A DNA stretch of 64,000 nt from an uncultured Candidatus Micrarchaeota archaeon (GCA_963762345.1 CAVXKI010000002.1:370-64369), one strand, 5' to 3'. Counted from the first letter of the stretch, positions 10,740-40,437 are shown. The notes: generated from the letters alone by a model not told the origin. Numbers and translations: made by a program.

Positions 10740-10783
10740 TAAGCTCAGCTTTTATTGGAGATAAATATGGGATAAAACCTTTT

Positions 10784-10801: not shown

Positions 10802-10835
10802 GATTGACCTGTTTGCTTTGCACTTGTCTGCGACG

Positions 10836-13243: not shown

Positions 13244-13253
13244 CTAGATCATT

Positions 13254-14388
13254 TCATATCAATTTTCTAAGCGTGTGCTGCGAACTGAGGCTCGGCGAGC
13301 CCAGCAGGTCCCCTACCGCCTCCATGAAATCGAATGATAATATCAGCGACAGCAGGAAAGCGACCACAATGTAAAACATCTGGCCTACGACCGTGCCTAT
13401 GAGTTCCTCGATCACGTTGAGCCCGATGAGGTTTGACTGCGGCACCCAGAAGTTTGAACTTGGAGAGACTGAGCCCAGCAGCGACTGTGTAGAGTAGGAG
13501 GAGAACTGTATGGACGTGAGGCTCACCTGCCCCAGCAGCAGGTACAGCATCAGCGGGAAGAGCACGTAGAACGCGATGAAGAATCCGAGGAATGCGCCGC
13601 CTGCCGCCCTGCTGAACGGGAGAGTACGGAACACGATCCCGAGATACAGGAACAGTGGCGCTATCTTGAAGAAGATGGCGAGTATAGCTGCGCCTGCCAA
13701 CGGTATGACAAACATGAAGTAAAGTATGTTCATAAGGTCGAATATAGGTATCAGCACGAAACCGTATCCACGGTACGGTTGCACTAAGAATCCGTAGTTG
13801 TTGTCTTTTGCGCTCAACTGTAAGCTCGATACAAATGACACCTCATCGCTTACAACATACATGGACAGTATGTCGTTTATCACCGTTATGCTGGCGCCTC
13901 CGAGGTTTCCGCAGTCCGTAGTGAATATGCTAGGCGACAGCGTGCCGGGGCTGATCGCAAGATAGTTGCTAGACGTCGGCAGCGAGCCTACCGCGAGGAA
14001 TGTGCCGAGGAATATCAGCACGATCAGCCCGGTGAGCGCGACCTCGCCGATCTCGGTCCTTCCCAAAAGAGACGAGCCTGCCCACCTTGAACGCGGATCC
14101 TATCAGGTAACATAACGCAGCTATGTTCAGCATGACGAGCAGCGCAAGCAATGATATGAATATTACGTTGTTGGCGCCGACAACGGCCGGGCTTGTGCCG
14201 GACCCGCTCAGCGGGATGGAGCCGGAGAAAAGGCTGGAACAGAAATCGCCGGCGGTATACGCTGGCGCTGAGTACTGCGCTCCCGCGACGGTTGTGACGG
14301 CGAGAAGCGCGATAAGCCCTAGCGCTGCTAGCTTGAGCGAACGCGGCACGGTTTTTTGCTTGCTAGTTTTCATTTTCATAATCGCCAC
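13254..14388 (-). pseudogene. polytopic membrane protein, paralog 3 (one frameshift near 14066-14072)
   Basis: ORFs 13969-14388 and 13254-14066 join as ...IGSAFKVGRLVS-LLGRTEIGEVALTGLIV... across a T4/A4 run. Family motif GIVFRTLPFSRAAGGAFLGFFIAFYVLFP. Confidence 0.6.
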
Positions 14389-16034: not shown

Positions 16035-16039
16035 TCACA

Positions 16040-17353
16040 TCACATCAAACATTTGACCAGAAGCTCGCCGCCCCCTCTATCCCACCGTTGAGCGCTTTCG
16101 CGAGGCCTGCCGCGAATCCGAGCGTTACCGTCAAGTTCATCGCGAACAGAATCGTAACTGAAAACAGGAATTCGGCAAGCTCCAGCGATATGTATTGCTA
16201 CTGACTGTATGGTGTCGTTGCCGTCGAATCCCAACGTGTTCGTGATTGAGTCTGCACTCTGGCCGAACAGCGAAGTCAGCGTACCGATAACGGCGCTCGG
16301 CGACTGCGCGAATATGTTTGGCAGCTGGACGCCGAATACGGTCATGCTTCCGGCTACCGGCGGATTGAGGTTGCCGAACGTGTCGGGCGTGTACGAGACA
16401 TCGAGATAATTGAAAGAGGGATTGCACGTTGCCGTGACGACCTGGGCGCCGCCAGTGGCAGGGGGGATACATGGAGTGAACATCCATGCAATCGCGTAAG
16501 AATCGAAGACTATCATGACCGGATATATTATATAGAGCGCTATCGATGCAGCGAGCACAGAATTCGCGGCGAGCCTGAGCGTACCTCCCGAAAACGCCAG
16601 TGATCTTAGCACCAGCGCGACTGGAAGCAGCACGGTGAAGGCGGCCAGCTGCGACATCGCGAGTATGAGGTACTGCACAAGCATTATGGCAATGCCAAGA
16701 GTTGTGAGCGGCGCGTATGCGTCGATAAAGGCATCTGTGAGTATGCTGTACGGCGCGCCGAGATCAGCATTTATAGGTAATTCGAAGCAAACGCCGGTGA
16801 CCTGGCCCACGGAATCGGCGCATTCGGGGGGAATCTGGAAAGTGGGGATCACGTCGGATAACTGCGTGTAAACGGTATACCACATTAGGCTTATCAGGCC
16901 GAACGCATACGAATAAGCATCTACCTGTATCCCAAGCAATGGGCCTATGTTGAATGCGTACTGGCCGATGTAGCTTTCTGAATAGGAAAACGGATCGGAC
17001 TGCGCAGACAGGGGGATTACGGGCTGGGCGAGCGCCGGGCATGGGATCCCGTTGTTGCAGTAGCCGAAGGTGGGCGCGGCTGTCTTGATCGTCTGGGTCA
17101 TCTGCGCTATCGTGTTGCTTATCGAGGAGGTCGCGGAGCAGAGCGATGATGTCACGGCGAAAAGAAGCGCAAGTATGAAGATGCTTATGAATATCTGCGT
17201 CAGCTCTGTCTTTGTTATGCCTGTGATCTTTGCCTTCGTGTTTGATGGGAGGGTACGGCTCAGCAGGTATACGAGGGTGATGATCAGGATCGATATCAGT
17301 ATCACTATCCCGTTGATTCCGAGCCAACTTGTTCCATAGTCACAGGTTAACAT
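16040..17353 (-). CDS. polytopic membrane protein, paralog 5 (most divergent motif)
   Basis: 437 aa with SNTKAKITGITKTELTQIFISIF and the motif ALVLRSLAFSGGTLRLAANSVLAASIALYIIYP. Confidence 0.55.
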   Translation of the reverse strand: MLTCDYGTSWLGINGIVILISILIITLVYLLSRTLPSNTKAKITGITKTELTQIFISIFILALLFAVTSSLCSATSSISNTIAQMTQTIKTAAPTFGYCNNGIPCPALAQPVIPLSAQSDPFSYSESYIGQYAFNIGPLLGIQVDAYSYAFGLISLMWYTVYTQLSDVIPTFQIPPECADSVGQVTGVCFELPINADLGAPYSILTDAFIDAYAPLTTLGIAIMLVQYLILAMSQLAAFTVLLPVALVLRSLAFSGGTLRLAANSVLAASIALYIIYPVMIVFDSYAIAWMFTPCIPPATGGAQVVTATCNPSFNYLDVSYTPDTFGNLNPPVAGSMTVFGVQLPNIFAQSPSAVIGTLTSLFGQSADSITNTLGFDGNDTIQSVAIHIAGACRIPVFSYDSVRDELDGNARIRGRPRESAQRWDRGGGELLVKCLM

Positions 17354-17364
17354 TCATCATCACG

Positions 17365-18651
17365 CTATGAAATCTTCATGCCGCCTATGCCGAGCCTCAG
17401 GCTTCCGCCGAGAGCCCTCGCCGTGTTCGTTGCGACTATAATGCCGACTATGAGATCCAGCACGAACAGTATGAATTGCAATGCGACCACATTGGCATAG
17501 GCAAAGAATGGAGTGAGCACGTCGGTAAAGTCGCCGCTGAAGAATGCATCGAGTGCACCGTCATATCCTGCATTGAAAGCCGCAACATCGTTCTCGTTGG
17601 GGGGTTCGTTTGCATACAACGACGCAAGGATGGGCAACGTGGGTACCGCTGCCAGAGTGGTAACAACAGAGCACAAGCTAGGAATCAGCGGAGGGCACGG
17701 ATTTGCGGGTTGCGCTGTCGCGGCGTTAGGGAATGTCGGCGAAAAGAATGCAACAACCGGCGCATTGAACAGCGCCAGGAGCGCAGGATAAATAATCGCC
17801 ATCGCAATGGCCATCGCTATGAGGGATGCGCCAAGCGGCCTTAGAAACGGGGTAGCCCTGAATATCAGGCCTAGCGGCAGCAATATGCCGAGTGCTACCT
17901 GCACAAGCGCAGTGAAAAGGTATATTTGCGCACCTGTTACAATCAGCATCGGGAATATGAGTAGATTGAGCGCATCCTTTTCCACGGTCGCCCCTTTTGC
18001 TATGTTTGTATCAAGGATTTCGCTCTGGAACGGCTGGTAGGTCAGGCCGAGGTTTATGCTCCCCCATATCTTCCCGGCATCGAGCGCCACTGGCGGAATT
18101 GTATACGTGAAATACTGGTAGAGCCATATGCCCTTGAGAAATTCGGAGCCGAAAGCTATGCCCATGAGGTTGTTGTATGCCTCGTTCACATAGTTTATGG
18201 CACCTGGTCCGCTTGGATATCCCGAAAGGAAGTAGTATGCGTTCTGGTAGAGGTTGGTTATCCCAGCAGCGGGATTGGTGAGCGTGCCAAGCGGAGCGCC
18301 AGGCACCAGCGAGGTCAGAGCGCCGAAAACTATTATTATCGAGAGTATGGCGCCTACTATTAGTATGCTCTTCACCGATTCCCATAATTCTCCCCTGTAC
18401 CAGCCCTTGAACGTCTGTATGTCAAGGACTTCTCCCAAAAGGTATGCGAACGCAACCATGGTGAAAGATAGCAGCAGTGCGACGAACACGAAGGGAAGCG
18501 TCGAATTTATGCAATCGCTGAGGTTGGTCGACGACGCTGTTGATGTTGCACAGTAGAAGCTGCTGAATAAGGTCGGCTGTGCGGCAGTGACCCCCTGTAG
18601 TGCTATGAAAAAGATGATCGCGAGCAGTGCAAGTCTCATTTTTGAGAGCAT
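17365..18651 (-). CDS. polytopic membrane protein, paralog 6
   Basis: 428 aa with a signal peptide (GVTAAQP), DIQTFKGWYRGELWESVKSILIVG, and the motif GLIFRATPFLRPLGASLIAMAIAMAIIYP. Confidence 0.6.
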   Translation of the reverse strand: MLSKMRLALLAIIFFIALQGVTAAQPTLFSSFYCATSTASSTNLSDCINSTLPFVFVALLLSFTMVAFAYLLGEVLDIQTFKGWYRGELWESVKSILIVGAILSIIIVFGALTSLVPGAPLGTLTNPAAGITNLYQNAYYFLSGYPSGPGAINYVNEAYNNLMGIAFGSEFLKGIWLYQYFTYTIPPVALDAGKIWGSINLGLTYQPFQSEILDTNIAKGATVEKDALNLLIFPMLIVTGAQIYLFTALVQVALGILLPLGLIFRATPFLRPLGASLIAMAIAMAIIYPALLALFNAPVVAFFSPTFPNAATAQPANPCPPLIPSLCSVVTTLAAVPTLPILASLYANEPPNENDVAAFNAGYDGALDAFFSGDFTDVLTPFFAYANVVALQFILFVLDLIVGIIVATNTARALGGSLRLGIGGMKIS

Positions 18652-18709: not shown

Positions 18710-19441
18710 TCATCTCTTGAGAAGTCCGAACCTTCCCATGTACGATTGGCTCTGCAGCACGACAAGGAACGGCATTATGAACAGGGAATTGAACACAAGT
18801 ATCAGGTATCTTGAGAGTATGGTGCCTCCTATTGCTATGAAAAGATAGTCGAAAACGCTGAGCAGCACCAGCGCAACCACAAACCACAATATCACGAAGT
18901 CGAATCTCTTGAAGAAGAAGGAGGCGCTCTGCCTCATTGCGCGGTATATGCCCTTCTCATCGATTACTATTGAAGCGGGAGCATAGAAGAAGAACGGAAG
19001 TATCACAAGGGAGACTATGGCGCTTATGGACTCGGTGATGCCAAGCATGTACATCGCGACATCGAATAGCACCACTATCGCTGCGTAGAGGAGAAGGACT
19101 AAGAACACGTTTGCGGTGTACTTCTCAAGCCCGTCCATGACCTCTTTCCTTATCCTTGTCTGCGTCCTGCTGTGCTTCACTATCACGTTTATGGCAACCA
19201 TCGCAAAGCTCAGGAACAGCAGCGATAGGAGTATGGAGAATATTATTACCGCTGCGGTGAACGGAGTCAGGTTGATGAGGATGCTTGACAGCCTGAGGAA
19301 TATCGCGCCGATATCGTTGAAAGTTGGAAAGGAAGCGAATATGGGTATGAGGAATGCGATTATGAAGGATATGGAGAATACGAGTATCATTGGAAGGTGC
19401 GTTGTGTAGATCTCCATCGAGTACTTAAGCGTGTTCTTCAT
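18710..19441 (-). CDS. ~6-TM integral membrane protein, unknown function
   Basis: 243 aa, very hydrophobic. First gene after the pilin terminator. TTTATATT lies about 35 nt upstream of its ATG. Confidence 0.5.
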   Translation of the reverse strand: MKNTLKYSMEIYTTHLPMILVFSISFIIAFLIPIFASFPTFNDIGAIFLRLSSILINLTPFTAAVIIFSILLSLLFLSFAMVAINVIVKHSRTQTRIRKEVMDGLEKYTANVFLVLLLYAAIVVLFDVAMYMLGITESISAIVSLVILPFFFYAPASIVIDEKGIYRAMRQSASFFFKRFDFVILWFVVALVLLSVFDYLFIAIGGTILSRYLILVFNSLFIMPFLVVLQSQSYMGRFGLLKR

Positions 19442-19583: not shown

Positions 19584-19976
19584 TTAGCCGCACGAAGCCG
19601 CTGCGTTTGCTGTTACTCCGGAGACGCTGTTGCCTGTTATCACAGTCAGTATGAATGGCGCTATTACCGCAATTATTATGCCAATCACACCGCCGAGCAC
19701 CATACCCATGCCGTAACCCTGCATAGTGCCCTTGGTCTGTCCGGGCATTATGTGCGAGCCAGCATAGAGAGCGCCGCCTAATATCATCAGCATTAAGCCG
19801 ATTATGAATATGGCTGCGACCACGGAGCTGTATACGCTGTATATTGCACAGATCACATTGCTCGCCTGTGCCGAGGCTGTCGTCATAAACACGCTTGTCA
19901 GCGCTAGCAACATGAACAATACCCTAAACATATTGTTCGAGTTCAGCGCCAATAGCTTGTACATTATGTTTCCCAT
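19584..19976 (-). CDS. small VirB2/TrbC-like two-helix hairpin protein (candidate major pilin)
   Basis: Probable start MGNIMYK (19976) or later. Sec signal peptide ending ASAQA, then NVICAIYSVYSSVVAAIFIIGLMLMILGGALYAGSHIMPGQTKGTMQGYGMGMVLGGVIGIIIAVIAPFIL...AAASCG: TM, short basic loop, TM. Confidence 0.6.
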   Translation of the reverse strand: MGNIMYKLLALNSNNMFRVLFMLLALTSVFMTTASAQASNVICAIYSVYSSVVAAIFIIGLMLMILGGALYAGSHIMPGQTKGTMQGYGMGMVLGGVIGIIIAVIAPFILTVITGNSVSGVTANAAASCG

Positions 19977-20067: not shown

Positions 20068-20514
20068 TCACTTCTTCGAGTAGAATTCGTAGGCGATTGC
20101 GGCGCCGACTATAGCCAGCATGCCCATCTGCACCCATGTGGTTATCGCAACGCTCAGGATCAGCGCGCCGACCCCTGCGGCGGATCCTCCTCCTGACACG
20201 TATGATATGAAGCTCTGCGAGTATGCTCCGAGAGCATAGCTCAGCACGACGTTCACGAAGCCGACTATAAGCGTGAGCATAAGAGCGGCTATCATGCTGA
20301 CCCAGAGGTAATCGAATGCCTTGGCAGACCTTCTTCCGACCCAGATGCCGAAGAGTATTGCGAGGAATAGCGTGTTGGTGCCCAGCATTATCTGCGTAGA
20401 TATGCTGAGATATGAAGTGAACCCTGCAACGAAGGCGATCACCTCGAACACGAGCCATACTATCAGCGGATACTTTATTATGTCAAGGTAGCTTTTTTTC
20501 ACCATAGAATCCAA
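20068..20514 (-). CDS. 4-TM small membrane protein, unknown function
   Basis: 148 aa, hydrophobic, with a Gly/Ala-rich loop SGGGSAAGVGA. Lies between the giant hairpin proteins and the small pilin gene. Confidence 0.5.
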   Translation of the reverse strand: MDSMVKKSYLDIIKYPLIVWLVFEVIAFVAGFTSYLSISTQIMLGTNTLFLAILFGIWVGRRSAKAFDYLWVSMIAALMLTLIVGFVNVVLSYALGAYSQSFISYVSGGGSAAGVGALILSVAITTWVQMGMLAIVGAAIAYEFYSKK

Positions 20515-20556: not shown

Positions 20557-23355
20557 TCAAACCGAGCACGCGGCGAGCAGGTTCGTGAGCTGGCCATAGA
20601 CGGTAATCGATACGACTACATAAGAGAACGCAGCGAGTCCCGCGCCTACAAGTCCGCCTAGAATCATGCCCATCGCATAACCCTGTATTGTGCCCCTCGC
20701 CTGGGCAGGGAGCAGCTGCCCGAGTTCGTAGAGAACCGCGCCAAGCAGCAGCAGGGTGATTGACAGTACGGCGAGTATCGCCTCTATCTGCGCGAAGATC
20801 GTACAGAGGCTGGATGTGAGCGGCGCCGCGTTCGCTGTTCCGCCGTTCGATGATCCTATATTCGACTGCGATGGATTTATGGTAAGCGCCCCCGCGCCCA
20901 CATAGCCATTGTCGTACATAAGGCAATAGAGATATGTGCCTGGAGGGAAGTCGGCGGGGCTTTGTGAGCCTATGCTGCATTCGACTCCTTGTGGCTGTTG
21001 CGACTCGCTTTGCGTGCCGCTCTGTGTGCCTGCGCAGTCAACGTAGCCCGGATGGGTCGGATCCTCGGTGCATCCTGGAGGAACGTATGGCTGGCAGTTG
21101 TCTGTCGATACTCCTGCACCGTAGCCGCACGTCGACCCTGGGAGCGCTGGTGTCTGCGACGTGCATGAGTATGGCGCTGTTGTGCTCGGCAGATAGCCCA
21201 TATAACAGCCGTTCGCATCGCCCGGCGAATCCGTACACGGACCATATGCAGGGGACAGAGTGGCGGTGCATGCCTGCTGCGCGTTTATGAGATTTGTGTT
21301 AGTATATGGAATCACATACAGCCTCAGGGGCACGCTCGAGAGGCCATATGCATTTGCAGTGATGGTCGCGCTTGATCCCTGTTGTATTGTGTATGGATTG
21401 ATGTTGACCGAGCCCAAAGCAGTGAGCGGTGCTCCAGTTGAGCCGATGAATGTTGTCGGCGCCTGCTCCGTGCTCTGGCCGGTGGTGCACTGGCCTGCCC
21501 CATTGCACGTTATGCCAGCGCTCGCGAAGAATATTGCAAGGCTGGCTCCATCACCAGCAGTCTGGGTGGGCGGAGGGGACGCATAGTAGCCGAGCGTCGG
21601 GTTCACGCCGTAGTCGTATCCTTGTGACGGGTTTGATGGATACTGCAGCTGCAGCGAATCGGGGCCGAAGCCGCCAGAGCCGCTTGGAGTGAAATAATCA
21701 TACGCGCAGACCAGGTAACTGCCGGCATGACCCTGCGGCAGGTAGGTCTGCGGATCTATAGATGCGGTGTCGGATGGCCCGCTGCTTCCGGAGAATGTTG
21801 TTATTAGGCACGGGAGCGAGGTGCCGGCGTTAGAGCAGTAGTCATCCTGTGCCTGCAACACCAATGGAGGCACGCACCCGTTTGAATCGGTACCGCTCGC
21901 AAGCTCGAAGTAGCAGTTGTATCCGCCGTTCAGGCTCCCGCCGCACAGCGATGTTGATGACGGAGCGGACTGGCCTATGCTTGTGAAGTAGTTCACGAAC
22001 GGTGATTTCGGCACTTCGTCCGGATTTAGCGTAACCTGCAGCGGCGCGGTGGTCGAAAGCGGGAATGTTGATGGACCGAATGTGAGGAACAGCCCATAGC
22101 TCGGACCCCACATCGCGTTTGCCGCAACAACGATGTTGCCGACAACAGGGTTAGCCTGGCCTTGTGGAACCAACAGCCCGCTGCCGGACGGGCTGGGCGC
22201 AAGGATCTGGTAGCTGCCGCATATATTATATGTGCCCTGGGGCGTGTATATCGTGTTCGTGAAATAGCTGAGCTGGCAGTACGGAGTCGCAATGTTGTTG
22301 TTCATGTCAAAGCTGTTGAACACCTGCGCTGCATCGGTGATGCAAGGAGGCCACGGGCGTATTGTTCCATACGCATTTATCTGCACCTGATATTGAATTC
22401 CATTGATGTTCCTGTACTGCAGCCCGGTTGTCAGGAAGGTAGTATCCTCAGAGCAGAAGACATTGATGAAGCCGTCGTTTTCCTGTGCTGGCGATGATGC
22501 TAGTGTATCCGGTACTACGCACGGCGTTCCCTGCGCAGACATCTGAACGAAGCTCTCCGTGTTGCACGATACTCCTGAATAATTGAAATCTATGTCTGAG
22601 GATGCGCCAGGAAGCAGGACTGTTGGGCCGATTGTAAGTTTCTCTGATGTGCCGGATACGAGAGAAAGCGTGGCGCCTCCGGCATATTCGGGGATAGTGG
22701 GAGGGGGCGAGGAATAGCCGGCTCCTGAACACAGGGAGGGTCCCCCGTATGTGTTGCACTGCGGCGGATTTGTGCCTGCGCAGAAAAGGCTCGACCCGTA
22801 GGTGCAGTCCGGGACACCTGTCTGGCAAGCGGGCTGAACATTATCGTATATGCAGGACTCAAGCGAGGGATCAAGGACTCCTATGAAATAGTAGTTTACA
22901 TTTGGCAGGAGGCCCTGCGGCGTCTGCACCTGCAGCGTTATGGATGGATTTGGGGACCAGACGGCATTGGCGAGCACGCACGCATCGCTTATTGTTAGAC
23001 CTGCGTTGCCGCACGTCGGCAATCCATAAACTGTGAGAGCGGCGATGGTCCAATAATCATTCGGATTGTTGATGACTATGGAGTTTGTAGATGGCAGGAA
23101 TATCAGGAATGCGTTGTCATTATCGGCAAAAACTCCGCATCCGCTGCTCTCACCATTGCACGTAGACCCTGGTGGTGTTGTTGCAAATGTCACTGTAGCC
23201 TGCCCACCCACAGCTATCGTAGGTGGACTGAAGGTCACTCCGCCAACAGCAAGATCTGACGGGGGCGGTTGCACCGCGCCCGCGCTGTGCGCGAAAAGGA
23301 GCAGCAGCAGTAGGAACAGCGGCGCGAAGTGTTTTATTTTTTTATTCAATGTCAT
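20557..23355 (-). CDS. giant secreted Cys-rich protein with C-terminal VirB2-like hairpin module (932 aa)
   Basis: Signal peptide (LLLLLFAHSAGA). Ectodomain of ~830 aa rich in C, G, T, S, P, with recurring G-[TS]-Y-x-x-C-x-Y motifs. C-terminus LCTIFAQIEAILAVLSITLLLLGAVLYELGQLLPAQARGTIQGYAMGMILGGLVG...LLAACSV. Confidence 0.65.
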   Translation of the reverse strand: MTLNKKIKHFAPLFLLLLLLFAHSAGAVQPPPSDLAVGGVTFSPPTIAVGGQATVTFATTPPGSTCNGESSGCGVFADNDNAFLIFLPSTNSIVINNPNDYWTIAALTVYGLPTCGNAGLTISDACVLANAVWSPNPSITLQVQTPQGLLPNVNYYFIGVLDPSLESCIYDNVQPACQTGVPDCTYGSSLFCAGTNPPQCNTYGGPSLCSGAGYSSPPPTIPEYAGGATLSLVSGTSEKLTIGPTVLLPGASSDIDFNYSGVSCNTESFVQMSAQGTPCVVPDTLASSPAQENDGFINVFCSEDTTFLTTGLQYRNINGIQYQVQINAYGTIRPWPPCITDAAQVFNSFDMNNNIATPYCQLSYFTNTIYTPQGTYNICGSYQILAPSPSGSGLLVPQGQANPVVGNIVVAANAMWGPSYGLFLTFGPSTFPLSTTAPLQVTLNPDEVPKSPFVNYFTSIGQSAPSSTSLCGGSLNGGYNCYFELASGTDSNGCVPPLVLQAQDDYCSNAGTSLPCLITTFSGSSGPSDTASIDPQTYLPQGHAGSYLVCAYDYFTPSGSGGFGPDSLQLQYPSNPSQGYDYGVNPTLGYYASPPPTQTAGDGASLAIFFASAGITCNGAGQCTTGQSTEQAPTTFIGSTGAPLTALGSVNINPYTIQQGSSATITANAYGLSSVPLRLYVIPYTNTNLINAQQACTATLSPAYGPCTDSPGDANGCYMGYLPSTTAPYSCTSQTPALPGSTCGYGAGVSTDNCQPYVPPGCTEDPTHPGYVDCAGTQSGTQSESQQPQGVECSIGSQSPADFPPGTYLYCLMYDNGYVGAGALTINPSQSNIGSSNGGTANAAPLTSSLCTIFAQIEAILAVLSITLLLLGAVLYELGQLLPAQARGTIQGYAMGMILGGLVGAGLAAFSYVVVSITVYGQLTNLLAACSV

Positions 23356-23409
23356 GGCAACCTTTTCCTTTTTTTTATTTTTATTTTCATACTTAAATAT
23401 TTATTGCGC

Positions 23410-24909
23410 TCATGGCGTACATCCGTTCAGCGCCAATATGTTTCCTACAGTTGTGTTTGCCGCGAACGACAGCGTGTACACTGACACGCCCACTATCACC
23501 AAGCTTATTATGCCGGCAAGTACCAGCCCCATAGCGTAACCCTGTATCGTACCTCTCATCTGACCGGGTATTGAGTAGCTGACCGCGTATGTCGCGGCGC
23601 CTATCAGTATGAGGACCAGGGCCAGGATCGCGAGCAGCGCTTGAACTTGGTAGTAAGCTGAGCAGAGTATTGTCTGTATGATGGCTGCGGATGCGGATGG
23701 GCCTGGCTGGATGTAATTGATATTGCCGCATGTCAGGTCTCCGGGGAGGCACTGTACCTCGAAGTCCTGCTGCGCGAAGAAAACCGACCATGGATCTGAT
23801 GATGATGAAAGGCCGGGCTGGTTGCCCTCGTAGCCGCATATGCTGTATGTGCTCGCGGCCAGATTTGCCGTCGATATCTGCACTGGCGCGATGTTCCCGT
23901 CTGTGGGTGCGGTGTTCGGCCCTCCCGAATATGCTATTACACATGGAAGATCTGCGCTGGCGGGCGCATAACTGGGACATAATGGAACCTTGTCTGTGCT
24001 TGCTACGGTGCCGGGTGCGTCCTGTGATTGCGTGGTCGGAACGCCGCCGTATTGGCAATACACGCCTGCACCTGGTTCTGCAATTTCAAGATATGTTGGG
24101 TAGGCGCCATCGCCGGACAGAGATATCTGCATCTCGTCTCCCTTTATGAAATTTGTCTGCGGGGCTGTGATACCTTGCATTACTTGATCGACTGTCAATG
24201 TCAGCGGAGCAAGCGTAGTGAGCGAGAAAGATCCAGACGCGGTGTTTGGGAGCACGGACTGGTCGATGAGGATATTCTGCGGCAGCGACTGATCAGGCTG
24301 TATCTGGAACCACTGAAAGCCGGAGCATGCTGCTGGAGGGTTGACACTCCTCCACGGGTTTGACGTGCTCTCCGGCGCTATTCCTATATAGGCGCAGAGC
24401 TGGTAGTAACCTGGTGCGAGGTCGGCGCCGTAATAGGGGTTAACTATGCAGGTGCCATCGTGATTGCCGTCCAGATAATTATACGGCGTGCTGCCACTGC
24501 ATGCCCACGCCTGATCGTATGCATAACCCGAAGGTGGGCTCGACTGCAGGTCTGCCCATTGGCTTCCGACAGAAGACGCATCTGGGCACGACAGGCCGGC
24601 CGGTTGGGCAACGATGTAGACCGGGCACTGCGGCGCTGGATAATTGGATTGGTCGCATGCATCATACGTGTCGGGGACGCCCGGAATCTCTGTCGGGAAG
24701 CTATATGCCACGCCGAATCCAAGCTGCGTGTACGCACCGGGCTCGATCTGCGTCGCGCCGGTGATGCCGAATCCTGACTGTGAAACGGAAACTGTGGGAC
24801 AGCCACCCGTGAAGAGGGCGGATGTCTTTGCCGAAAGCGATGACAGTAAAATGACAAGCAGCATCGTAGCGAAAAGATAATTCCTGATTTTACTCTTATT
24901 GTTCATCAT
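23410..24909 (-). CDS. secreted Cys-rich protein with C-terminal VirB2-like hairpin module (499 aa)
   Basis: Signal peptide, then motifs APGYYQLCAYIG and AASTYSICGYEG. C-terminus LCSAYYQVQALLAILALVLILIGAATYAVSYSIPGQMRGTIQGYAMGLVLAGII...ALNGCTP. Confidence 0.65.
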   Translation of the reverse strand: MMNNKSKIRNYLFATMLLVILLSSLSAKTSALFTGGCPTVSVSQSGFGITGATQIEPGAYTQLGFGVAYSFPTEIPGVPDTYDACDQSNYPAPQCPVYIVAQPAGLSCPDASSVGSQWADLQSSPPSGYAYDQAWACSGSTPYNYLDGNHDGTCIVNPYYGADLAPGYYQLCAYIGIAPESTSNPWRSVNPPAACSGFQWFQIQPDQSLPQNILIDQSVLPNTASGSFSLTTLAPLTLTVDQVMQGITAPQTNFIKGDEMQISLSGDGAYPTYLEIAEPGAGVYCQYGGVPTTQSQDAPGTVASTDKVPLCPSYAPASADLPCVIAYSGGPNTAPTDGNIAPVQISTANLAASTYSICGYEGNQPGLSSSSDPWSVFFAQQDFEVQCLPGDLTCGNINYIQPGPSASAAIIQTILCSAYYQVQALLAILALVLILIGAATYAVSYSIPGQMRGTIQGYAMGLVLAGIISLVIVGVSVYTLSFAANTTVGNILALNGCTP

Positions 24910-24915
24910 ATCATC

Positions 24916-26940
24916 TCATGAAGTGAATGCGGTGCAGTAGCTCAATACCTGTGCGATGGAAGTGTCAGCAGATATGGAAAGCGCCCATACAGACAGCGCT
25001 GCTATCACCATTGCTATTATCCCTACAAGTATAAATCCAAATGCATAGCTCTGGGCTTGCCCCCTTACCGCAGCTGGCAGTATGCTAGATCCGGCGTAGA
25101 GAGCGGCACCGAGCAGCAGTAGTATCATCGCGAATATCAACAATATTATGTCGAGCTCGCTGTATATCGTGCATACGGTCGAGCCGAATGCGCCGAGGCT
25201 TTGCGCGCCCTGGCCGTATGGCGTGACCACGCCGAGAGTGGTGCATATGCCGCATGGGCACGTGACACCTGGGGGCACCGTGCATGTCGGGGGCACATAT
25301 GCCTGCGCTGACGACGACGTTGTGCACAAGCCGTTCACGCATGATACTGTTGCGGTGGCAAAGAACGGGGCAAATTCCGTGATTGTATATGGATTTGTCA
25401 CCCAGTCCAATGGGGTATAATCATACATGCATAAAAGATAATCGCCGTTCGTCAGATACTGCGTGCTCAGCAGTTGCGAGTATGTGAGATTGTCTCTGTT
25501 TTGATAATTGTTTGGATATGAATCAAGGATGCACGGCGCAGAGCCCTGTGTCAATGGAAGCGTGCATGTGGAGATCGTATGCAGCACTGCTGTGATGCCG
25601 ACCGCAGTGTAGTACTCCGGCGCTTCGCACGTGGCAGATGGCTCCTGACCCGCATACTCCACGTAGCAGTTGTCGCCCGTGTCGCCGGTGCCGCATATGT
25701 TTGGTGCAACAGTGCTGGATGTCCTGTAATCTGAGGTTGCCTGCGTTGATATTGTTGTGGTGTTGCCCAGCAGGAATGTCGTCGGCGTGATCAACAGCCC
25801 GTAGCCGCTCGAGAATGTATTGACGGTGATAACTGCACTGCCTATTGGCGAGCCTGCGGATTGCTCCTGGGCCTGCGCAGAATAATAAATGCAATAGTTG
25901 TACGTGCCCGAAGAAACCCTGCCTGGGAATGCTGAGTACATCGTCCATGAAGCCGACGTTGGACTTGCTGCTGTGCAGGTCGGCGGAGATTCTTCGACGT
26001 ATCCTGTTTCTATGGAGCAGGAGCTGGTGATGATGTATGGGCATGGCGGCTCTGTAGGCGATGCAGTGGAGCTGTCGTAGTAGGAGGGCGGGCAGGGAGG
26101 CGGCGTGGACGAACCGGACGGCGCAGCCATTATGTTGACGAAGACTCCGTCGTAGAACATGCATTCTGTCGTCGTGCTTGACAAGCCAGTGACCGTGACA
26201 GACACGTTAGATGCTGCGCCAGGTATTATTTCCGCAGGTTGGGGTATGACAATTGCGATCGTTGATGCGTATGATACTATCAGATTTGCAGTGCCGGCCC
26301 AGATTGGGTCGATGGTGCCGACAGAGGGCGCCACCGTTTGCGGGTTTAGAAGCCCAGTATCCTCATAGTAGGCTTGGAATGTGTATGTGCCTGCAGGCAG
26401 CGTGCTGGGCAGGGGACCGCTCGCCGATACCGTACCGGTTGACTGCTCCTGCGCTGCCCCTTGTGATGTGGTTATGCTTGCGGCTATGCATGCCGCAGTG
26501 GTATACGGATTGGAGAGCGAGGAGCATTGCGGCAGACTGTTGAGGTTGCCGTTGCCGTTGTAGTTTGTTGTTGTTCCGGGCGGGACATATATCACAACTA
26601 GGGCGCACCCGGTTGGAGGTGGACCGGAGTTGGCGGTGCATTGCACGTTCAACGTGTTGACTGTGAAACCCACGCCTCCTGTTGTGCCTGTAGCAATCGG
26701 ATTGCCGGGCGAGAACGAGATAGTGCCGCAGAAGTCCTCCGGATAGAAGACGCCGGCGCTATAGTCTGACACGCATGGCAGCGAGCCGATAGGCGCAGTG
26801 CAGCCTATTGTCAATGTGGCGGGATCCGTGCACGCAGGCAGCGTGGCGGCATCGGTCTTAAGCAGGAAAAGCGCACAGAATAAAATCGCAGCGAGTAATA
26901 TTGCACCGCGGTTTATCGAGAACATGCAAAACCAATCCAT
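24916..26940 (-). CDS. secreted Cys-rich protein with C-terminal VirB2-like hairpin module (674 aa)
   Basis: Likely start MFSINRG at 26925, followed by a signal peptide. Motifs SSGTYNYCIYYSA and TNGDYLLCMYDY. C-terminus VCTIYSELDIILLIFAMILLLLGAALYAGSSILPAAVRGQAQSYAFGFILVGII...LSYCTAFTS. Confidence 0.65.
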   Translation of the reverse strand: MDWFCMFSINRGAILLAAILFCALFLLKTDAATLPACTDPATLTIGCTAPIGSLPCVSDYSAGVFYPEDFCGTISFSPGNPIATGTTGGVGFTVNTLNVQCTANSGPPPTGCALVVIYVPPGTTTNYNGNGNLNSLPQCSSLSNPYTTAACIAASITTSQGAAQEQSTGTVSASGPLPSTLPAGTYTFQAYYEDTGLLNPQTVAPSVGTIDPIWAGTANLIVSYASTIAIVIPQPAEIIPGAASNVSVTVTGLSSTTTECMFYDGVFVNIMAAPSGSSTPPPCPPSYYDSSTASPTEPPCPYIITSSCSIETGYVEESPPTCTAASPTSASWTMYSAFPGRVSSGTYNYCIYYSAQAQEQSAGSPIGSAVITVNTFSSGYGLLITPTTFLLGNTTTISTQATSDYRTSSTVAPNICGTGDTGDNCYVEYAGQEPSATCEAPEYYTAVGITAVLHTISTCTLPLTQGSAPCILDSYPNNYQNRDNLTYSQLLSTQYLTNGDYLLCMYDYTPLDWVTNPYTITEFAPFFATATVSCVNGLCTTSSSAQAYVPPTCTVPPGVTCPCGICTTLGVVTPYGQGAQSLGAFGSTVCTIYSELDIILLIFAMILLLLGAALYAGSSILPAAVRGQAQSYAFGFILVGIIAMVIAALSVWALSISADTSIAQVLSYCTAFTS

Positions 26941-26998
26941 TTTAGTTGATGAATTGTATTTGCCTAAGCCTCTTTATATATTTATTGATTTTCCAGCG

Positions 26999-29278
26999 TC
27001 AGACTGCGGCGCCGGAGCACACCATGCTGATTATGTTTGCGGGCGAGTTGTACGCTATCGACAATACGTAAGGAGCGACCATCGCGATTATCGCTCCTGC
27101 AACTCCGCCGAACACGAGTCCCATTGCGTAGCCCTGCACCACGCCTCTTGACTGTCCTGGGAGTATCTGCGCCCCGGCGTAGAGCGCCCCTCCGAGTATC
27201 ATGAGAGTCAGCGCGAGTAGGAAGACGATCGTGTTTACAATATAGTATACGCTGCATATCGCTTGAAGTGCAGGAGTGATTGAGCCGCTGCCGCTTGTGC
27301 CGCCTGTGCTGCCGCTGCCAGGATTGAGTGTGAGCTGCGCGCTCTGCATTGCCCAGCAGCCCGTGGGCCCGACGCTTGGGTTGTTGTTGCAGGTAACGCC
27401 AGTGGGACCGGTTGCACCAACCAGCGAGTACGAGCATATTGTGTCTGTTCCGCCAGAGGTCGATGTTGTGACAGGCAATGTCACAGACTCGTATACAGAG
27501 GAGCTGGAGCCGACCTCACAGGAGATTCCAGTGGGAGTAGGTATTCCCGGGTTTGTATACGTAGATGCGCAGGAAGTCCCTGACGATGCTTCACCATAGT
27601 ATGGAATGGCCTGGCATGTGCCGCCCGGCCCAATATCGTCTATCTCTGTGTAGGTGCCGCAGTCGGTCGGGTCGTTGCACTGCGCTGTGAACGTGACCTG
27701 GTTCTGGTCTGTACTCGGATTGAGGTTCTGCGTGGCTGGATTGTATGATATGTCAAGCGACTCTGGGTTGCCGCCTGTTGCGATTATTGTGAGTGCAGCC
27801 TGTGTGGTCGCCGGCGCCCATGCCTGTTGGCCTGTGTTGATGTCGCACACGCCGTAGCACGCGTATCCGCACACATTGACGGTTGTGGTTTGGCTTGCGA
27901 CAACGTCCTGTGAATAGTATATTCCCTCGCTCGCACCGGAGGGATAAAGACTGGTTGACCACGAAGTCCATGATGAAGTTGGATTCAGGACGCATCCGAC
28001 GCTTGAGATGGCGAATAAGTCAGTGCTTCCGCAGTATGGCTGCCAGAGGCCGTTGCCCTGCCCTCCGCCCGTTATGGCAAGGCCGCTGCCCGAGGGGCAT
28101 GACGTTCCTTGGGGCTCTATCAATATCGTGCCCCAGTTGCATTGGCTGGACGATGGAGAGGTAAGAGATGTACCATAAGCTGAGCCGTGGCAGGCCACCA
28201 AGAATGATGCAGCCGAACCCGAATCTACAGTGGCAGATGAGCCCCACCCCTGAAGGGTAGGCGTGCCACCAGGAATAACACCCACGTAGACTGGCGGCGG
28301 AGACGATGAAGTAGGGGTTGATATTGTGAGAGTCCCCTGGCTTGCATCGGTCCACGTGCTCGAGCCCTGCGCCTGGAAGTATCCGCATACGTCGAGATTG
28401 GTGCCAGAGCTGGAAGTTGTGTATGCTGTGCCTGTCGCAGACATCGTATAGCATTCAGGCCCCAGGCCGCAGCTGCCGAAGCTACCGAGATTGCCTGACG
28501 AGCCGGCAAAGTTGTTCAGCTCGCAGTATCCGGATAGTTGTGACAGGTCGCTCGGGCAAGTGCTTGTCACGCTGCTTGGCGTGAAGGTGGCGCCGGTCGG
28601 ACAACCGGAGCTTGAGAGCATCATGTCGCCGGTATAGCATGAGCTGTTGGGGCCAACGCAGATCATCCCCGCAGTGAACGTGTTGCTAGGTCCTGACACA
28701 ACACTTTGGCTGCCCGGAGTGACCGCGGCATACACAGATATCACTGAAAAAACCGCTGAAATGATGTTCCCGTTTGTTAAATCATTCGCATAGAATATGT
28801 AGTCTCCCAAAGCCAGGTCTGATGGCGTAGCGTAGTTGCAGGTTGTGACTCCTGAGCCTGCCTGTCCTGTACAGACATGAGTTCCCGGTGACGGATAGTC
28901 GAGGGCGCAATTGTCACCCTGGACGCAAAGCGCTTGTATAGTTGCAGAAGAGCCATACGCAACTGAGTTCACTCCTGCAGGCAGAAAAACGACTGATGGG
29001 GAGATGCCTGTGAAAGACATGGTGGTTGTGCTTGTACTGGTTGGGAATGTGGAGAAGCTGGAAGTGGAAAAGCCTCCGACGGTGGTCATGGTTATGGGAC
29101 CGATGGTGGATTCTGAAGAAGAGGAGGGTATTGAGGGGACTGTCGGGCCAATCTGACCGATCGGGCTGACGCCCATGAGCGTGCTAAGCGTTGATATGAT
29201 CATCGCGCTTAAGAATAGGAAGAGCATGGTCTTTGCATTAGCTGCGATAACCTTCGCCAGCCCCTTTTTTCTCGCCAT
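26999..29278 (-). CDS. secreted Cys-rich protein with C-terminal VirB2-like hairpin module (759 aa), first gene of the array
   Basis: N-terminal signal/anchor and a T/S/G-rich ectodomain. C-terminus ICSVYYIVNTIVFLLALTLMILGGALYAGAQILPGQSRGVVQGYAMGLVFGGVAG...SMVCSGAAV. Confidence 0.65.
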   Translation of the reverse strand: MARKKGLAKVIAANAKTMLFLFLSAMIISTLSTLMGVSPIGQIGPTVPSIPSSSSESTIGPITMTTVGGFSTSSFSTFPTSTSTTTMSFTGISPSVVFLPAGVNSVAYGSSATIQALCVQGDNCALDYPSPGTHVCTGQAGSGVTTCNYATPSDLALGDYIFYANDLTNGNIISAVFSVISVYAAVTPGSQSVVSGPSNTFTAGMICVGPNSSCYTGDMMLSSSGCPTGATFTPSSVTSTCPSDLSQLSGYCELNNFAGSSGNLGSFGSCGLGPECYTMSATGTAYTTSSSGTNLDVCGYFQAQGSSTWTDASQGTLTISTPTSSSPPPVYVGVIPGGTPTLQGWGSSATVDSGSAASFLVACHGSAYGTSLTSPSSSQCNWGTILIEPQGTSCPSGSGLAITGGGQGNGLWQPYCGSTDLFAISSVGCVLNPTSSWTSWSTSLYPSGASEGIYYSQDVVASQTTTVNVCGYACYGVCDINTGQQAWAPATTQAALTIIATGGNPESLDISYNPATQNLNPSTDQNQVTFTAQCNDPTDCGTYTEIDDIGPGGTCQAIPYYGEASSGTSCASTYTNPGIPTPTGISCEVGSSSSVYESVTLPVTTSTSGGTDTICSYSLVGATGPTGVTCNNNPSVGPTGCWAMQSAQLTLNPGSGSTGGTSGSGSITPALQAICSVYYIVNTIVFLLALTLMILGGALYAGAQILPGQSRGVVQGYAMGLVFGGVAGAIIAMVAPYVLSIAYNSPANIISMVCSGAAV

Positions 29279-29333: not shown

Positions 29334-30398
29334 TTAAGCGAGTGATTGCGCAAGATTGCCCACTATCGTCTGGTGCGCCTCGCAAGGAGTCCAGCAGTTG
29401 GGGCACCTCTTCGCCTTTATGTCCTTTCTGAAATCGTTGGTCTCCCTCTTGCTCCACATGTTCCTCAAGTCGTAGTCTATCTCCCTGATATTGGCGAGCT
29501 GCCTGTACCACATTGTGCACGGGTAAAGGAATCCGTACGGGTCCAGGAAAACAGATGCGTTGAGCGACTTGCAGTCCATCGGCGTCTTTCCTGTCTTATA
29601 GTATTCTATCGATTTCTTGAGATAGATGTCCTCTATGGTGCGTTCTATCCCCAGCTCGAACTCCCTTGACTTTATTATCTGGCGCACCTCGTCCGGATAC
29701 ACTTTGCTCGGCCCCAAGTCCTTCATCTCCTGATTATGGTAGTAGTTTGAAGAGGAGTGCGCTATGTTGACATGCATGTCGATGTGCTTGAGCTTGGGAA
29801 TGTCTTTCTTCACTTCCTGATATGTCTTTTCGAACTGTCCCTCATTGTATTTCGACATCGTGTAACCGAACACGTGATAAAGATTCGGGTATTGCTTTCT
29901 TAGTTCTGATAGCGTCTTATACATCTCTATTGCGCGGTTGTAGTTTCCAGGTATGCCCCTGATTTTGTCGTGCAGCTCCCTGTAGCCATCCAAGCTCACC
30001 GTTATCGCAACTTTGGGTATCTTCATGTCAAGTATCTGCGTTATTCCACTGATCACTTTTTCCCTGTTGACAAGGGAGTTGACCGCCATGGTCATAAGAT
30101 AGAGGTCTTTTGAATTGTCCTTGAATGCCCTTGCTATTTCTATTATGTCCTCGCGCAGCCACGGCTCTCCTCCAGTCAGCCTTACCCACCTGAAGAAATT
30201 GTTCTTTACCGCGAACTTCCTTATCTCGTCTAGAGTGAGCTCCTCCTTCTTCCTGTGGATCTGCCATATGTTGCATGTCTCGCACCTGGAGTTGCACTCG
30301 TACGTCATGGCGAAGTTGAGCATGTACGGCACGCTAAGTGTCGAGAAATTCGACTTGAGCGCAGATGCGCCCATCCCCAGCAGCTTCTCCATCTTCAA
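29334..30398 (-). CDS. radical SAM enzyme with SPASM/twitch-type C-terminal Cys motifs
   Basis: CNSRCETC (CX3CX2C, nt 30273-30296). C-terminal C-x12-G-x4-C (CKSLNASVFLDPYGFLYPC) and CPNCWTPC. Confidence 0.8.
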   Translation of the reverse strand: MKMEKLLGMGASALKSNFSTLSVPYMLNFAMTYECNSRCETCNIWQIHRKKEELTLDEIRKFAVKNNFFRWVRLTGGEPWLREDIIEIARAFKDNSKDLYLMTMAVNSLVNREKVISGITQILDMKIPKVAITVSLDGYRELHDKIRGIPGNYNRAIEMYKTLSELRKQYPNLYHVFGYTMSKYNEGQFEKTYQEVKKDIPKLKHIDMHVNIAHSSSNYYHNQEMKDLGPSKVYPDEVRQIIKSREFELGIERTIEDIYLKKSIEYYKTGKTPMDCKSLNASVFLDPYGFLYPCTMWYRQLANIREIDYDLRNMWSKRETNDFRKDIKAKRCPNCWTPCEAHQTIVGNLAQSLA

Positions 30399-30486
30399 TC
30401 CAGCACCGTTGTACTACTGTGATATGTGATATAGGTAGCGACTCTATACATATTTAGATATTTATAGAGTATCCTCTATAGATTAG

Positions 30487-30497
30487 GGTTTAAATAG
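30487..30497 (+). promoter_or_regulatory. TATA box for the GT2 gene
   Basis: GGTTTAAATAG about 35 nt upstream of ATG 30529. Confidence 0.45.
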
Positions 30498-30528
30498 TAA
30501 CAGCCGCTTTATTTCGGCGGATGAGGAA

Positions 30529-31212: not shown

Positions 31213-31213
31213 C

Positions 31214-40382: not shown

Positions 40383-40437
40383 CACGAAGTATATATCAAA
40401 ACCGACTGTTTTTATTACTTTAGATGGAATTAACATC

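Follow-up and report, generated by a model that had tools for sequence, protein, structure and literature searches.

The C-terminal ends of four large, cysteine-rich secreted proteins encoded side by side in the genome of a tiny, symbiotic Micrarchaeota archaeon are homologous, as sequence comparison confirms, to a small neighboring protein that resembles VirB2/TrbC pilins. Our leading, still tentative, reading is that the four large proteins carry adhesin domains and co-assemble with the small pilin as minor or tip subunits. The genes lie in a window of 64,000 nucleotides (the whole stretch of DNA analyzed), in which the Micrarchaeota (DPANN archaea) DNA runs from ~7.2 kb onwards. All five open reading frames (ORFs), between 19584 and 29278, are on the minus strand, and the gaps along the gene string are 6-91 nt. 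The large proteins are 932 aa (20557..23355), 499 aa (p499, 23410..24909), 674 aa (p674, 24916..26940) and 759 aa (26999..29278) in length, with the shared module encoded at 20560-20814, 23413-23673, 24919-25182 and 27002-27265, respectively. Public gene calls start p499 at 24864 and p674 at 26925. The 932-aa protein comprises a signal peptide, a ~815-aa Cys-rich ectodomain (34 Cys), a G/S/N-rich linker and the module; its nearest relative, P0065, is 38% identical over the full length. The p499 ectodomain has 14 Cys, and an exact-match query with the 759-aa protein retrieved no record. By inspection, signal-peptide-like sequences are present at the N-termini of the large proteins, as the initial annotation had claimed in assigning them Sec signal peptides. 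Read-through of gene calls was rejected as the source of the fusions: no break interrupts the ORFs in the raw DNA, the modules lack leaders and starts of their own, and many genomes repeat the same architecture.

The small protein is 130 aa (19584..19976, module 19587-19859) when counted from the ATG of public gene calls; the mechanical ORF extends to 20048. The initial annotation had proposed that its sequence is shared with the last ~90 aa of the four large proteins, and the C-terminal ~86-90 aa of all five are indeed homologous, with pairwise BLASTP e-values of 7.6e-6 to 2.7e-23 and short gaps at the two ends only. The module of the 759-aa protein is nearest to the small pilin (54% identity, E 2.7e-23). 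Ten columns are invariant among the five modules: the N-terminal Cys, L, G, Y, P, G, Q, Y, G and G. The consensus first offered for the module stands in outline but not in detail, as p499 has C-S-A-Y, p674 has P-A-A-V-R-G, and a single residue follows the last Cys of the small protein. At the family level, a profile of 55 small homologues aligns with one of 46 fused modules at an hhalign probability of 99.95% (E 5e-38). Two helices joined by a conserved basic loop (Y-A-G-x-x-x-[LM]-P-G-Q-x-[RK]-G-x-x-Q-G-Y) form the hairpin of the module, and the terminal Cys pair is kept in 151/162 modules. The positions conserved in the small pilins (G, Y, P, G, Y, G, G and both Cys) are also conserved in the 46 fused modules, which come from many species. 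Divergence is faster in the ectodomains than in the module; columns average 44% identity in the modules versus 8% over whole proteins. BLASTP of the ectodomains of the large proteins against each other yielded nothing significant except between p499 and p674, in a single alignment that crosses from the ectodomain into the module.

The bacterial VirB2, TrbC and TraA pilins measure ~70-100 aa once a short leader has been removed. The module has the two long hydrophobic helices and short basic loop that characterize TrbC/VirB2 at this size. In the small protein a signal-peptide-like leader (..TASAQ/ASN..) is followed by the two helices, with a Cys near each end. The AF2 model (pLDDT 82.9) places the helices at residues 38-73 and 81-114 and the loop at 74-80. 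By inspection, only a short leader precedes the hairpin in the 130-aa protein, whereas in the four large proteins a folded, Cys-rich ectodomain of 350-830 aa separates the signal peptide from the hairpin. Among the 55 close small homologues, 33 match PF04956 and 24 match PF18895 (E<=1); none of 10 reversed-sequence controls matches PF04956. The best PF04956 match, P0192, covers model positions 7-96 of 98 (7.1e-7) and is the sole homologue above the gathering score (29.8 bits versus 27.9), with seven others listed at 17-26 bits. Fused modules give weak matches in only 3/46 and 7/46 cases. The five modules of the window have no Pfam match at E<=0.1 and no NCBIfam or PDB match. Neither the small protein nor the profiles built from the five modules and from 55 sequences found anything relevant among PDB sequences, and hhalign of the family profile against a single Agrobacterium tumefaciens VirB2 sequence (PDB 8cue) gave a probability of 0.6%. 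A Foldseek search of the PDB with the small-pilin model, a method that resolves simple helical hairpins poorly, had a best e-value of 0.43, with only non-significant helical proteins and no pilin among the 50 hits listed. The tblastn hits of P0192 on plasmids (E=1, in a non-tra region of Providencia plasmids) were dismissed as chance matches. A VirB2 profile from plasmid records was dropped because every hit shared at least 57% identity with the query, so that such a profile would have added nothing. One JGI record labels a homologue 'VirB2 component (pilin)'. Taken at sequence level, there is moderate evidence that the small protein family consists of TrbC/VirB2-type pilins.

The genomic neighborhood is consistent with this assignment. 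The T4SS-like setting noticed in the initial annotation is real: a VirB4/CedB/HerA-superfamily ATPase is encoded at 7544..9102 on the minus strand, in the same co-directional gene string, and its DUF87, AAA_10 and TraG P-loop matches in Pfam are all above gathering scores. Its best NCBIfam match is CedB (E 7.8e-21, but 74 bits versus a cut-off of 700), then CedD and VirB4 models. An intact orthologue searched against the PDB hits HerA best (7e-11), and the VirB4 C-terminal domain (4ag5) at 6e-7, and sequence does not confidently separate the ATPase from HerA. Orthologues of the ATPase are ~500 aa; the window copy changes reading frame twice in its last third, at ~7858-7889 and ~7713-7816 (tblastn). 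The module family could instead be a lineage-specific two-pass unit of some other membrane complex with a HerA-like ATPase, its TrbC matches being convergent. The HerA proteins among the PDB hits, the lack of Pfam matches for the window proteins, the single homologue above the PF04956 gathering score, the Foldseek result and the absence of any VirB6, VirB3 or VirB8 signal when these were looked for in the cluster all fit such a complex. We nevertheless regard it as the least probable of the readings considered here, and very unlikely. Near full-length matches fall consistently on one pilin family in 33/55 homologues and in none of the reversed controls, and the ATPase ranks CedB, CedD and then VirB4-type conjugation ATPases first in NCBIfam, with AAA_10 and TraG P-loop above gathering scores. 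There is also a precedent in the Ced/Ted systems, where a small protein of two helices, at first regarded as a membrane protein and accompanied by such an ATPase, proved to be a pilin (PMC9905601).

The cluster contains ~12 genes, headed by the five module genes and closed by the ATPase gene, and looks like a domesticated type-IV-secretion or Ced-Ted-type machine. Directly downstream of the pilin gene is a highly conserved polytopic membrane protein of 243 aa (18710..19441, minus strand), which matches its counterparts in related loci at E 1e-73 to 1e-112 and had no match in a Pfam search. Six consecutive paralogous polytopic membrane proteins follow on the same strand (10836..18651; hhalign between families 75-99%), at 17365-18651, 16040-17353, 14388-16034, 13254-14388 (frameshifted), 12107-13243 and 10836-12110. 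Their gene order is kept in related loci. They have no Pfam or PDB sequence match and no detected link to VirB6, TrbL or CedA; they are candidate channel or assembly-platform subunits. Two paralogous membrane-anchored, bitopic proteins of ~277 aa (9075..10739, minus strand; hhalign 96%) come next, one intact (9906-10739) and one frameshifted near 9472 (9075-9906). In all, three cluster genes including that of the ATPase are frameshifted, and every fusion gene is intact; the frameshifts may be either sequence errors or decay of the machine. A conserved multi-pass membrane protein of 148 aa (20068..20514, minus strand) has orthologues in L003, L012, L014, L018 and L023, and in related loci its gene separates the fusion genes from that of the small pilin.

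Gene order in the cluster is kept in most of 26 Micrarchaeota species-level loci. The cluster is chromosomal, being found on contigs of 0.94-1.05 Mb and flanked by ThrRS, SerRS and eRF1 genes. Most cluster-bearing loci have no fusion gene inside 10 kb. Fusion genes lie directly upstream of the small pilin gene in the window and in L002, L003, L012, L017, L023, L028 and L032; in L004 and L007 they share its strand but lie farther upstream. The small pilin always has a gene apart from the fusions, with a leader of its own, present alongside.

The ectodomains themselves appear to be folded domains. All seven G-x-Y-x-x-C motifs quoted in the initial annotation are where they were said to be, against 0.11 expected from shuffles, and across the family Y-x-x-C-x-[YF] occurs 65 times versus 5.9 expected. 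Cys content is 3.2-4.5%, the Cys count is even in every protein, and N-x-S/T sequons are depleted in the ectodomains (185 observed versus 425 expected). The even Cys counts, the motif and the avoidance of sequons argue that the ectodomains have been selected as folded domains and not as leaders. Where ectodomains are recognizable, they belong to beta-sandwich adhesin types: PKD, SprB, InlB B-repeat, Big_9/13, Ig_3, cadherin and MG2. An AF2 model of p499 has low confidence (pLDDT 49.8, 8-sequence alignment) and consists of a beta-rich region at residues ~220-375 and a helical hairpin; Foldseek matches this model weakly to Ig-like domains (E ~5e-3 to 4e-2), which is only suggestive. The possibility that the four large proteins are S-layer proteins was rejected: PF05123 and PF05124 are absent, Cys makes up 3-4.5%, and an S-layer gene is present elsewhere in the window (47060-50056). 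[quoted passage not shown]

These features also bear on the second reading put forward in the initial annotation, in which the fusions are cleaved precursors. Cleavage in the linker would free a pilin, or several from a tandem form, and possibly a soluble ectodomain. Bacterial conjugative pilins do mature by proteolysis, the linkers upstream of the modules are G/S/T/P/N-rich and probably exposed, the proteins with seven (P0001) and four (P0002, L017:7657-9555) tandem modules resemble polyproteins, and helix 2 of a preceding module would be oriented like the core of a signal peptide. We consider cleavage improbable all the same, and its obligate form is not supported: 83 junctions share no cleavage motif over the 25 residues that precede the first Cys of the module, and large ectodomains with paired Cys, a conserved motif and sequon avoidance fit a discarded propeptide poorly. 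The separate small pilin gene with its own leader also argues against it.

Fusions are common in the family. Extra domains are carried by 92 of the best 150 cluster representatives. The module may be at the N-terminus, in the middle or at the C-terminus, or in 4-7 tandem copies, and the extra domains, whether N-terminal, C-terminal or both, are always on a hairpin end predicted to be outside. P0149 joins a module to 1,600 aa of PKD/SprB/Ig repeats, and its gene, flanked by those for fumarase and PCNA, is remote from any cluster. The N-terminal and internal modules, the tandem forms and the off-cluster member had been overlooked in the initial annotation. In the literature searched, tandem multi-hairpin proteins have no described counterpart. 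A homologue search with p499 returned only the query itself, as low-complexity words saturated the candidate list, and a search with the fused-module alignment returned small pilins only.

This diversity of placement, together with P0149, keeps alive a reading in which the hairpin is a pilin-derived membrane anchor. It would hold the ectodomains in the cytoplasmic membrane as surface adhesins or coat proteins that never enter a filament, and the small protein could form a pilus or not. A tightly packed helical lattice would have no room for ectodomains of 380-815 aa on all of its subunits, the fusion genes remain intact though the ATPase frame is broken, and Foldseek found no structural match to pilins, all of which an anchor would accommodate. 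It is the chief rival reading, which we think possible but rather unlikely. Hydrophobicity would suffice for an anchor, yet the invariant loop, the Gly/Tyr pattern and the Cys pair match those of the small pilin across many species. A plain anchor needs no conserved cytoplasmic loop, so conservation of the loop in fused modules favors the pilin reading. The fusion genes are directly upstream of the pilin gene in the same gene string, and the Micrarchaeota S-layer (bioRxiv 10.1101/2021.04.28.441871) would partly bury membrane-anchored proteins.

The minor or tip subunit reading, also raised in the initial annotation, draws on the module homology, the pilin-family signal, the cluster with its ATPase and the wide spread of fusions; it is favored but unproven. 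It would work as follows. The large proteins would be exported by Sec, and the Cys-rich, probably Ig-like ectodomain would remain outside. Helix 1 of the C-terminal module is predicted to span the membrane inwards, the conserved basic loop to be cytoplasmic, and helix 2 to run back outwards, where the two conserved Cys may staple the outside ends by a disulfide. Because its invariant residues are identical to those of the small pilin, the fused module would be recognized by the same machine and might then enter a filament as a minor or tip subunit. In solved conjugative pili, both hairpin ends are on the filament surface. The variable ectodomain would be carried beyond the S-layer, where it could act as an adhesin for a wall-less Thermoplasmatales host.

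Several known systems resemble parts of this arrangement. Bacterial conjugative pilins (VirB2, TrbC, TraA; PF04956) and T4SS_pilin (PF18895) share with the family a Sec-type leader, two hydrophobic helices, a short basic loop, both ends outside the membrane, a VirB4-family ATPase encoded alongside, and weak-to-moderate profile matches in close homologues. The conserved Cys pair hints at a disulfide counterpart to pilin cyclisation, one that would tie the ends much as TrbC/VirB2 head-to-tail cyclisation does. The known pilins differ from the proteins described here in the interposed ectodomain and, for other family members, in the C-terminal extensions or 4-7 tandem hairpins. FimH and PapG (chaperone-usher tip adhesins) and TcpB and CofB (large type IV minor pilins) combine a receptor-binding domain and a pilin unit in one polypeptide, and such subunits are present in few copies per filament, usually at the tip. 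The pilin domain of FimH is Ig-like and is completed by donor-strand exchange. The analogy is one of design only, as the folds and assembly machines are unrelated; the module here is an alpha-helical, conjugative-type membrane hairpin, and Pfam detects no chaperone or usher domains in the cluster.

The Ced and Ted systems are archaeal DNA importers with CedA1/TedC pilins, CedA/TedA and CedB/TedB (Beltran et al. 2023, PMC9905601). They are likewise chromosomal, 'domesticated' T4SS-like clusters with a small two-helix pilin (here a candidate), polytopic protein(s) and a ~500-600-aa VirB4-like ATPase. Ced/Ted are found in Thermoproteota, whereas the present cluster is from DPANN archaea and has six paralogous polytopic proteins instead of one, and the CedA, CedA1 and TedC NCBIfam models show no detectable similarity to its small pilin and polytopic proteins. 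Pilin-ectodomain fusions are a further difference; the words 'fused', 'fusion' and 'adhesin' are absent from the Ced/Ted paper (PMC9905601). Variable VirB2 arrays near VirB4 are reported from episymbiotic Patescibacteria and from Bartonella, and the Bartonella Trw and Anaplasma VirB2 paralogues also form arrays; the variation in all of these is regarded as serving host recognition or evasion (PMC12102498). There too, tandem divergent pilin-module genes lie beside a T4SS-like ATPase in a host-dependent organism. The passages of PMC12102498 consulted describe small pilin genes and mention no fused domains, whereas here the organism is an archaeon and variation is mainly in the large ectodomains.

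For the question of how DPANN archaea recognize and tap their hosts, this locus offers testable candidates: a conserved chromosomal T4SS/Ced-like machine and a variable cassette whose large proteins have the polymerisation or membrane module of the pilin in common. The literature searched contains no description of a Micrarchaeota T4SS or of pilin fusions, and the locus points to an undescribed way to mount probable host-binding domains on a T4SS-like pilus or on the pool of its subunits in the membrane. Should the fusions be built into the filament, they would be the first conjugative-type (VirB2-class) pilins found with an adhesin domain of their own; to our knowledge, that design is so far seen only in unrelated pilus classes. 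They would also parallel the variable VirB2 arrays reported as essential in an episymbiotic Patescibacterium (PMC12102498). Cryo-ET has revealed pili-like fibers, of unknown makeup, between ARMAN-type cells and Thermoplasmatales (PMC4110969). A more speculative extension, which we hold to be improbable, is that a lipid-auxotrophic DPANN archaeon builds a lipid-containing VirB2-type pilus in which the first subunits, or occasional ones, are covalently joined to variable host-binding domains, with the 4-7-hairpin proteins as pre-assembled nucleating layers or tips. Such a pilus would pass through the S-layer onto the wall-less Thermoplasmatales as a conduit for DNA, lipids or metabolites. If true, it would give the ARMAN-host fibers (PMC4110969) a molecular identity. 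Directly upstream of the fusion genes is a radical SAM/SPASM gene (29334..30398, minus strand), whose membership in the pilin system is uncertain. It is part of a glycosylation-type block, and this block adjoins the pilin cluster with or without fusions.

Four large genes on the minus strand, at 20557-23355, 23410-24909, 24916-26940 and 26999-29278, encode fusion proteins of 932, 499, 674 and 759 aa, respectively (p932, p499, p674 and p759). The gene for a 148-aa membrane protein (20068-20514, minus strand) lies between the p932 gene and that of a small 130-aa protein (19584-19976, minus strand), a VirB2/TrbC-like pilin candidate. The fusion genes and the small pilin gene are co-directional, with intergenic gaps of 6-91 nt. 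The initial annotation held that the four large proteins end like the small one, and the similarity persists in an alignment of the five modules. The mature small protein aligns with the C-terminal ~86-90 aa of each large protein, gaps being short and confined to the two ends; 10 columns are invariant, and pairwise BLASTP of module against module among the five window proteins gives E-values of 7.6e-6 to 2.7e-23. Thus, the shared C-terminal module is real and far beyond chance. Between the ectodomains of the four fusion proteins there is no significant similarity, except for p499 and p674, where a single alignment spans the ectodomain and continues into the module.

The AlphaFold2 model of the small pilin (55-sequence alignment, pLDDT 82.9) consists of a leader helix, a helix at residues 38-73, a loop at 74-80, a second helix at 81-114 and a short terminal helix. 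The same hairpin ends the p499 model, at low confidence. Conservation is highest in the loop region, Y-A-G-x-x-x-[LM]-P-G-Q-x-[RK]-G-x-x-Q-G-Y, followed by the Gly-rich helix 2. The module has one Cys where helix 1 begins and another a few residues before the C-terminus (e.g., the module at 20560-20814). Neither Cys varies among 46 fused modules drawn from different species, and 151/162 modules overall keep the pair. The N-terminal Sec signal and the basic loop predict a topology with the ectodomain outside, the loop inside and the C-terminus outside. As this topology would place the two Cys adjacent to each other on the outside, a disulfide is likely to staple the outer ends of the hairpin. 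The pilins TrbC and VirB2 undergo head-to-tail cyclisation, to which such a staple may be a functional counterpart.

The window's own proteins have no Pfam match. The 55 close small homologues are 41-69% identical, and 33 of them match PF04956 (TrbC/VirB2) at E<=1, while 24 match PF18895 (T4SS_pilin). The top-scoring homologue reaches 29.8 bits with PF04956 (gathering score 27.9), aligned to positions 7-96 of a model 98 positions long; among the matches listed, six other homologues score 24-26 bits and one 17 bits. None of 10 reversed-sequence controls matched (best noise ~15 bits), and the TrbC/VirB2 signal is therefore not merely hydrophobic composition. One JGI record labels a homologue "VirB2 component (pilin)". 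Foldseek with the small pilin model and hhalign against a single A. tumefaciens VirB2 sequence were both uninformative on the relationship. The Pfam matches of the homologues, together with the ATPase neighborhood, make a VirB2-type ancestry of the module quite probable. Anecdotally, and without statistical support, helix 1 of the mature small pilin (module at 19587-19859) starts with S-N-V-I-C-A-I-Y, and the corresponding stretch of A. tumefaciens VirB2 (PDB 8cue) reads V-N-N-I-C-T-F-I.

Searched against 1.84 billion proteins, a profile built from the five modules found 290 cluster representatives (E<=1e-3). In a scan that took a single genome for each prokaryotic species, there were 26 module-bearing loci, in MAGs labelled Micrarchaeota/Micrarchaeia save for three labelled Marsarchaeota. 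Most of these loci share a gene order: a 140-150-aa membrane protein (where detected), the small pilin (1-3 copies), a 243-aa membrane protein, six polytopic proteins, two ~277-aa proteins and a ~500-aa ATPase. The two 277-aa proteins are paralogous (hhalign 96%), as are the six polytopic proteins, encoded consecutively at 10836-18651 (hhalign 75-99%), which have in common the motif F-R-x(2)-P-F-x-R-x(2)-G-G-x(2)-I-A-x(7)-I-Y-P and no Pfam or PDB sequence match. That these six paralogues keep the same order across related loci suggests a candidate hetero-oligomeric channel or platform. The DUF87, AAA_10 and TraG P-loop matches of the ATPase all exceed Pfam gathering scores. Its best NCBIfam matches are CedB (7.8e-21) and CedD, from archaeal DNA import, followed by VirB4-type conjugation ATPases; PDB matches of the intact orthologue are HerA (7e-11) and the C-terminal domain of VirB4 (4ag5, 6e-7). 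The cluster is found on contigs of 0.94-1.05 Mb amid tRNA synthetase and other housekeeping genes, and is thus chromosomal, as are the Ced/Ted systems (PMC9905601).

The window itself is chimeric or concatenated. Its first ~7.2 kb (1-7200) is Bacillaceae-like DNA of low GC (0.29-0.40), joined to Micrarchaeota DNA, as seen from its bacterial genes (MFS transporter, TauE/SafE-like, MBL-fold plus rhodanese, DsrE-like and rhodanese), the 78% DNA identity of 2698-6765 to Niallia and Priestia plasmids, and a jump in GC at ~7170-7220. The junction is due to misassembly, bin contamination or concatenated contigs. Within 7544-14388, the ATPase gene is apparently frameshifted twice in its last third (~7858-7889 and ~7713-7816), and the second 277-aa gene (~9472) and the fourth polytopic gene (~14053-14099) once each. 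None of these four frameshifts is at a long homopolymer, and they reflect either errors in the sequence or a machine in decay. Between 14.4 and 29.3 kb, a stretch of 15 kb, there are none.

The profile search also showed that fusions are widespread: 92 of the best 150 of the 290 representatives have extra domains or tandem modules. An N-terminal extension of 82-993 aa with one C-terminal module is the most common architecture (69/150), and the small proteins of about 64-190 aa account for 58. Domains stand on either side of the module in 11, nine begin with the module and extend C-terminally by up to 1,633 aa, and three have tandem modules. Seven loci (L002, L003, L012, L017, L023, L028 and L032) have fusion-gene arrays immediately upstream of the small pilin gene, and in two (L004 and L007) the arrays are farther upstream on the same strand. 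Most other loci have no fusion gene within 10 kb of the pilin gene, so the fusions are a variable cassette beside a conserved core. In many loci, whether or not fusion genes intervene, the pilin cluster is next to a glycosylation-type block, which in the window comprises radical SAM/SPASM, GT2, PMT_2-type glycosyltransferase and carbamoyltransferase genes (29334-34692); in loci without nearby fusions this block is nearer the pilin gene.

Among the tandem proteins, P0001 has seven modules after a 395-aa ectodomain and P0002 (L017:7657-9555) has four. In these multi-hairpin proteins (4 or 7 hairpins; L017:7657-9555 and L028:2675-5890) each hairpin has its Cys pair, the linkers are S/G/T/N-rich, and there is one ectodomain; both occupy the locus position of the window's fusions. 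We know of no counterpart among conjugative pilins. Such proteins make a polyprotein possible. Obligate cleavage of a precursor, the second of two readings initially offered, is not supported: at the 83 junctions examined the linker is rich in G, S, T, P and N, and no cleavage motif is conserved.

As had been proposed, each large protein begins with a signal-peptide-like sequence and is rich in Cys (3.2-4.5%); the number of Cys is always even. A recurring motif had been reported in these ectodomains; it is present in three of the four, and G-x-Y-x-x-C-type motifs number 7 against 0.11 expected from shuffles. In the wider family, 67 ectodomains contain 65 copies of Y-x-x-C-x-[YF], where 5.9 would be expected. 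Each ectodomain has few homologues, and between nearest relatives identity is 41-80% over the module and 34-44% over the ectodomain. Recognizable domains are confined to a few family members and are all of beta-sandwich, adhesin type (PKD, SprB, InlB B-repeat, MG2, Big_9/13, Ig_3, SpaA_4, cadherin). Although p499 was modelled poorly overall (pLDDT 49.8), the better-modelled residues ~220-375 form a beta-rich region with weak Ig-like Foldseek matches (E ~5e-3 to 4e-2).

The best-supported reading is that the fusion proteins are minor or tip subunits recognized by the machine. They would enter the membrane as pilin precursors do, the machine handling the small pilin would also recognize the fused modules, and their incorporation would display variable adhesin domains. 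This reading rests on the loop, Gly/Tyr and Cys positions conserved alike in small and fused modules, on the fusion genes adjoining the pilin gene, and on the extra domains being found only on hairpin ends predicted outside; filament formation and host binding, like the topology and disulfide, we infer. The chief alternative is that the module serves as a pilin-derived membrane anchor and never enters a filament, which is favored by the varied positions of the module within proteins, by steric considerations and by P0149 (L029:2669-7927). This protein of 1,752 aa has an N-terminal module followed by PKD/SprB/Ig repeats, and its gene lies between those for fumarase and PCNA, away from any T4SS-like cluster.

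The closest known proteins are bacterial VirB2/TrbC/TraA pilins and archaeal CedA1/TedC (PMC9905601). FimH-type two-domain tip adhesins are alike in design, by analogy only. In biology, the nearest parallel is with the variable VirB2 arrays found close to VirB4 in Bartonella and in episymbiotic Patescibacteria (PMC12102498). The present case is a variant on these, a probable VirB2-class module joined to large surface domains, in a T4SS/Ced-like cluster of Micrarchaeota of which the literature searched offers no description. The Micrarchaeota literature searched contained no mention of pili of this type or of VirB proteins. Cryo-ET has revealed pili-like links between ARMAN cells and their hosts (PMC4110969).

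The fusion proteins were rejected as a candidate S-layer protein; the likely S-layer gene (998 aa, S-layer outer domain PF05124) is at 47060-50056, ~18 kb from the pilin cluster. The S-layer protein of Ca. Micrarchaeum harzensis is almost without sulfur-containing residues (bioRxiv 10.1101/2021.04.28.441871). N-x-S/T sequons are depleted in the four window fusion proteins (7 vs. 27.6 expected) and in 57 long family members (185 vs. 425 expected, sd 18). They are enriched in two large neighbors without a Pfam match, at 44717-46870 (27 vs. 11.7 expected) and 50362-52698 (14 vs. 5.3 expected). The window also encodes a seryl-tRNA synthetase (41638-42933) and a tRNA-Leu (40298-40384).
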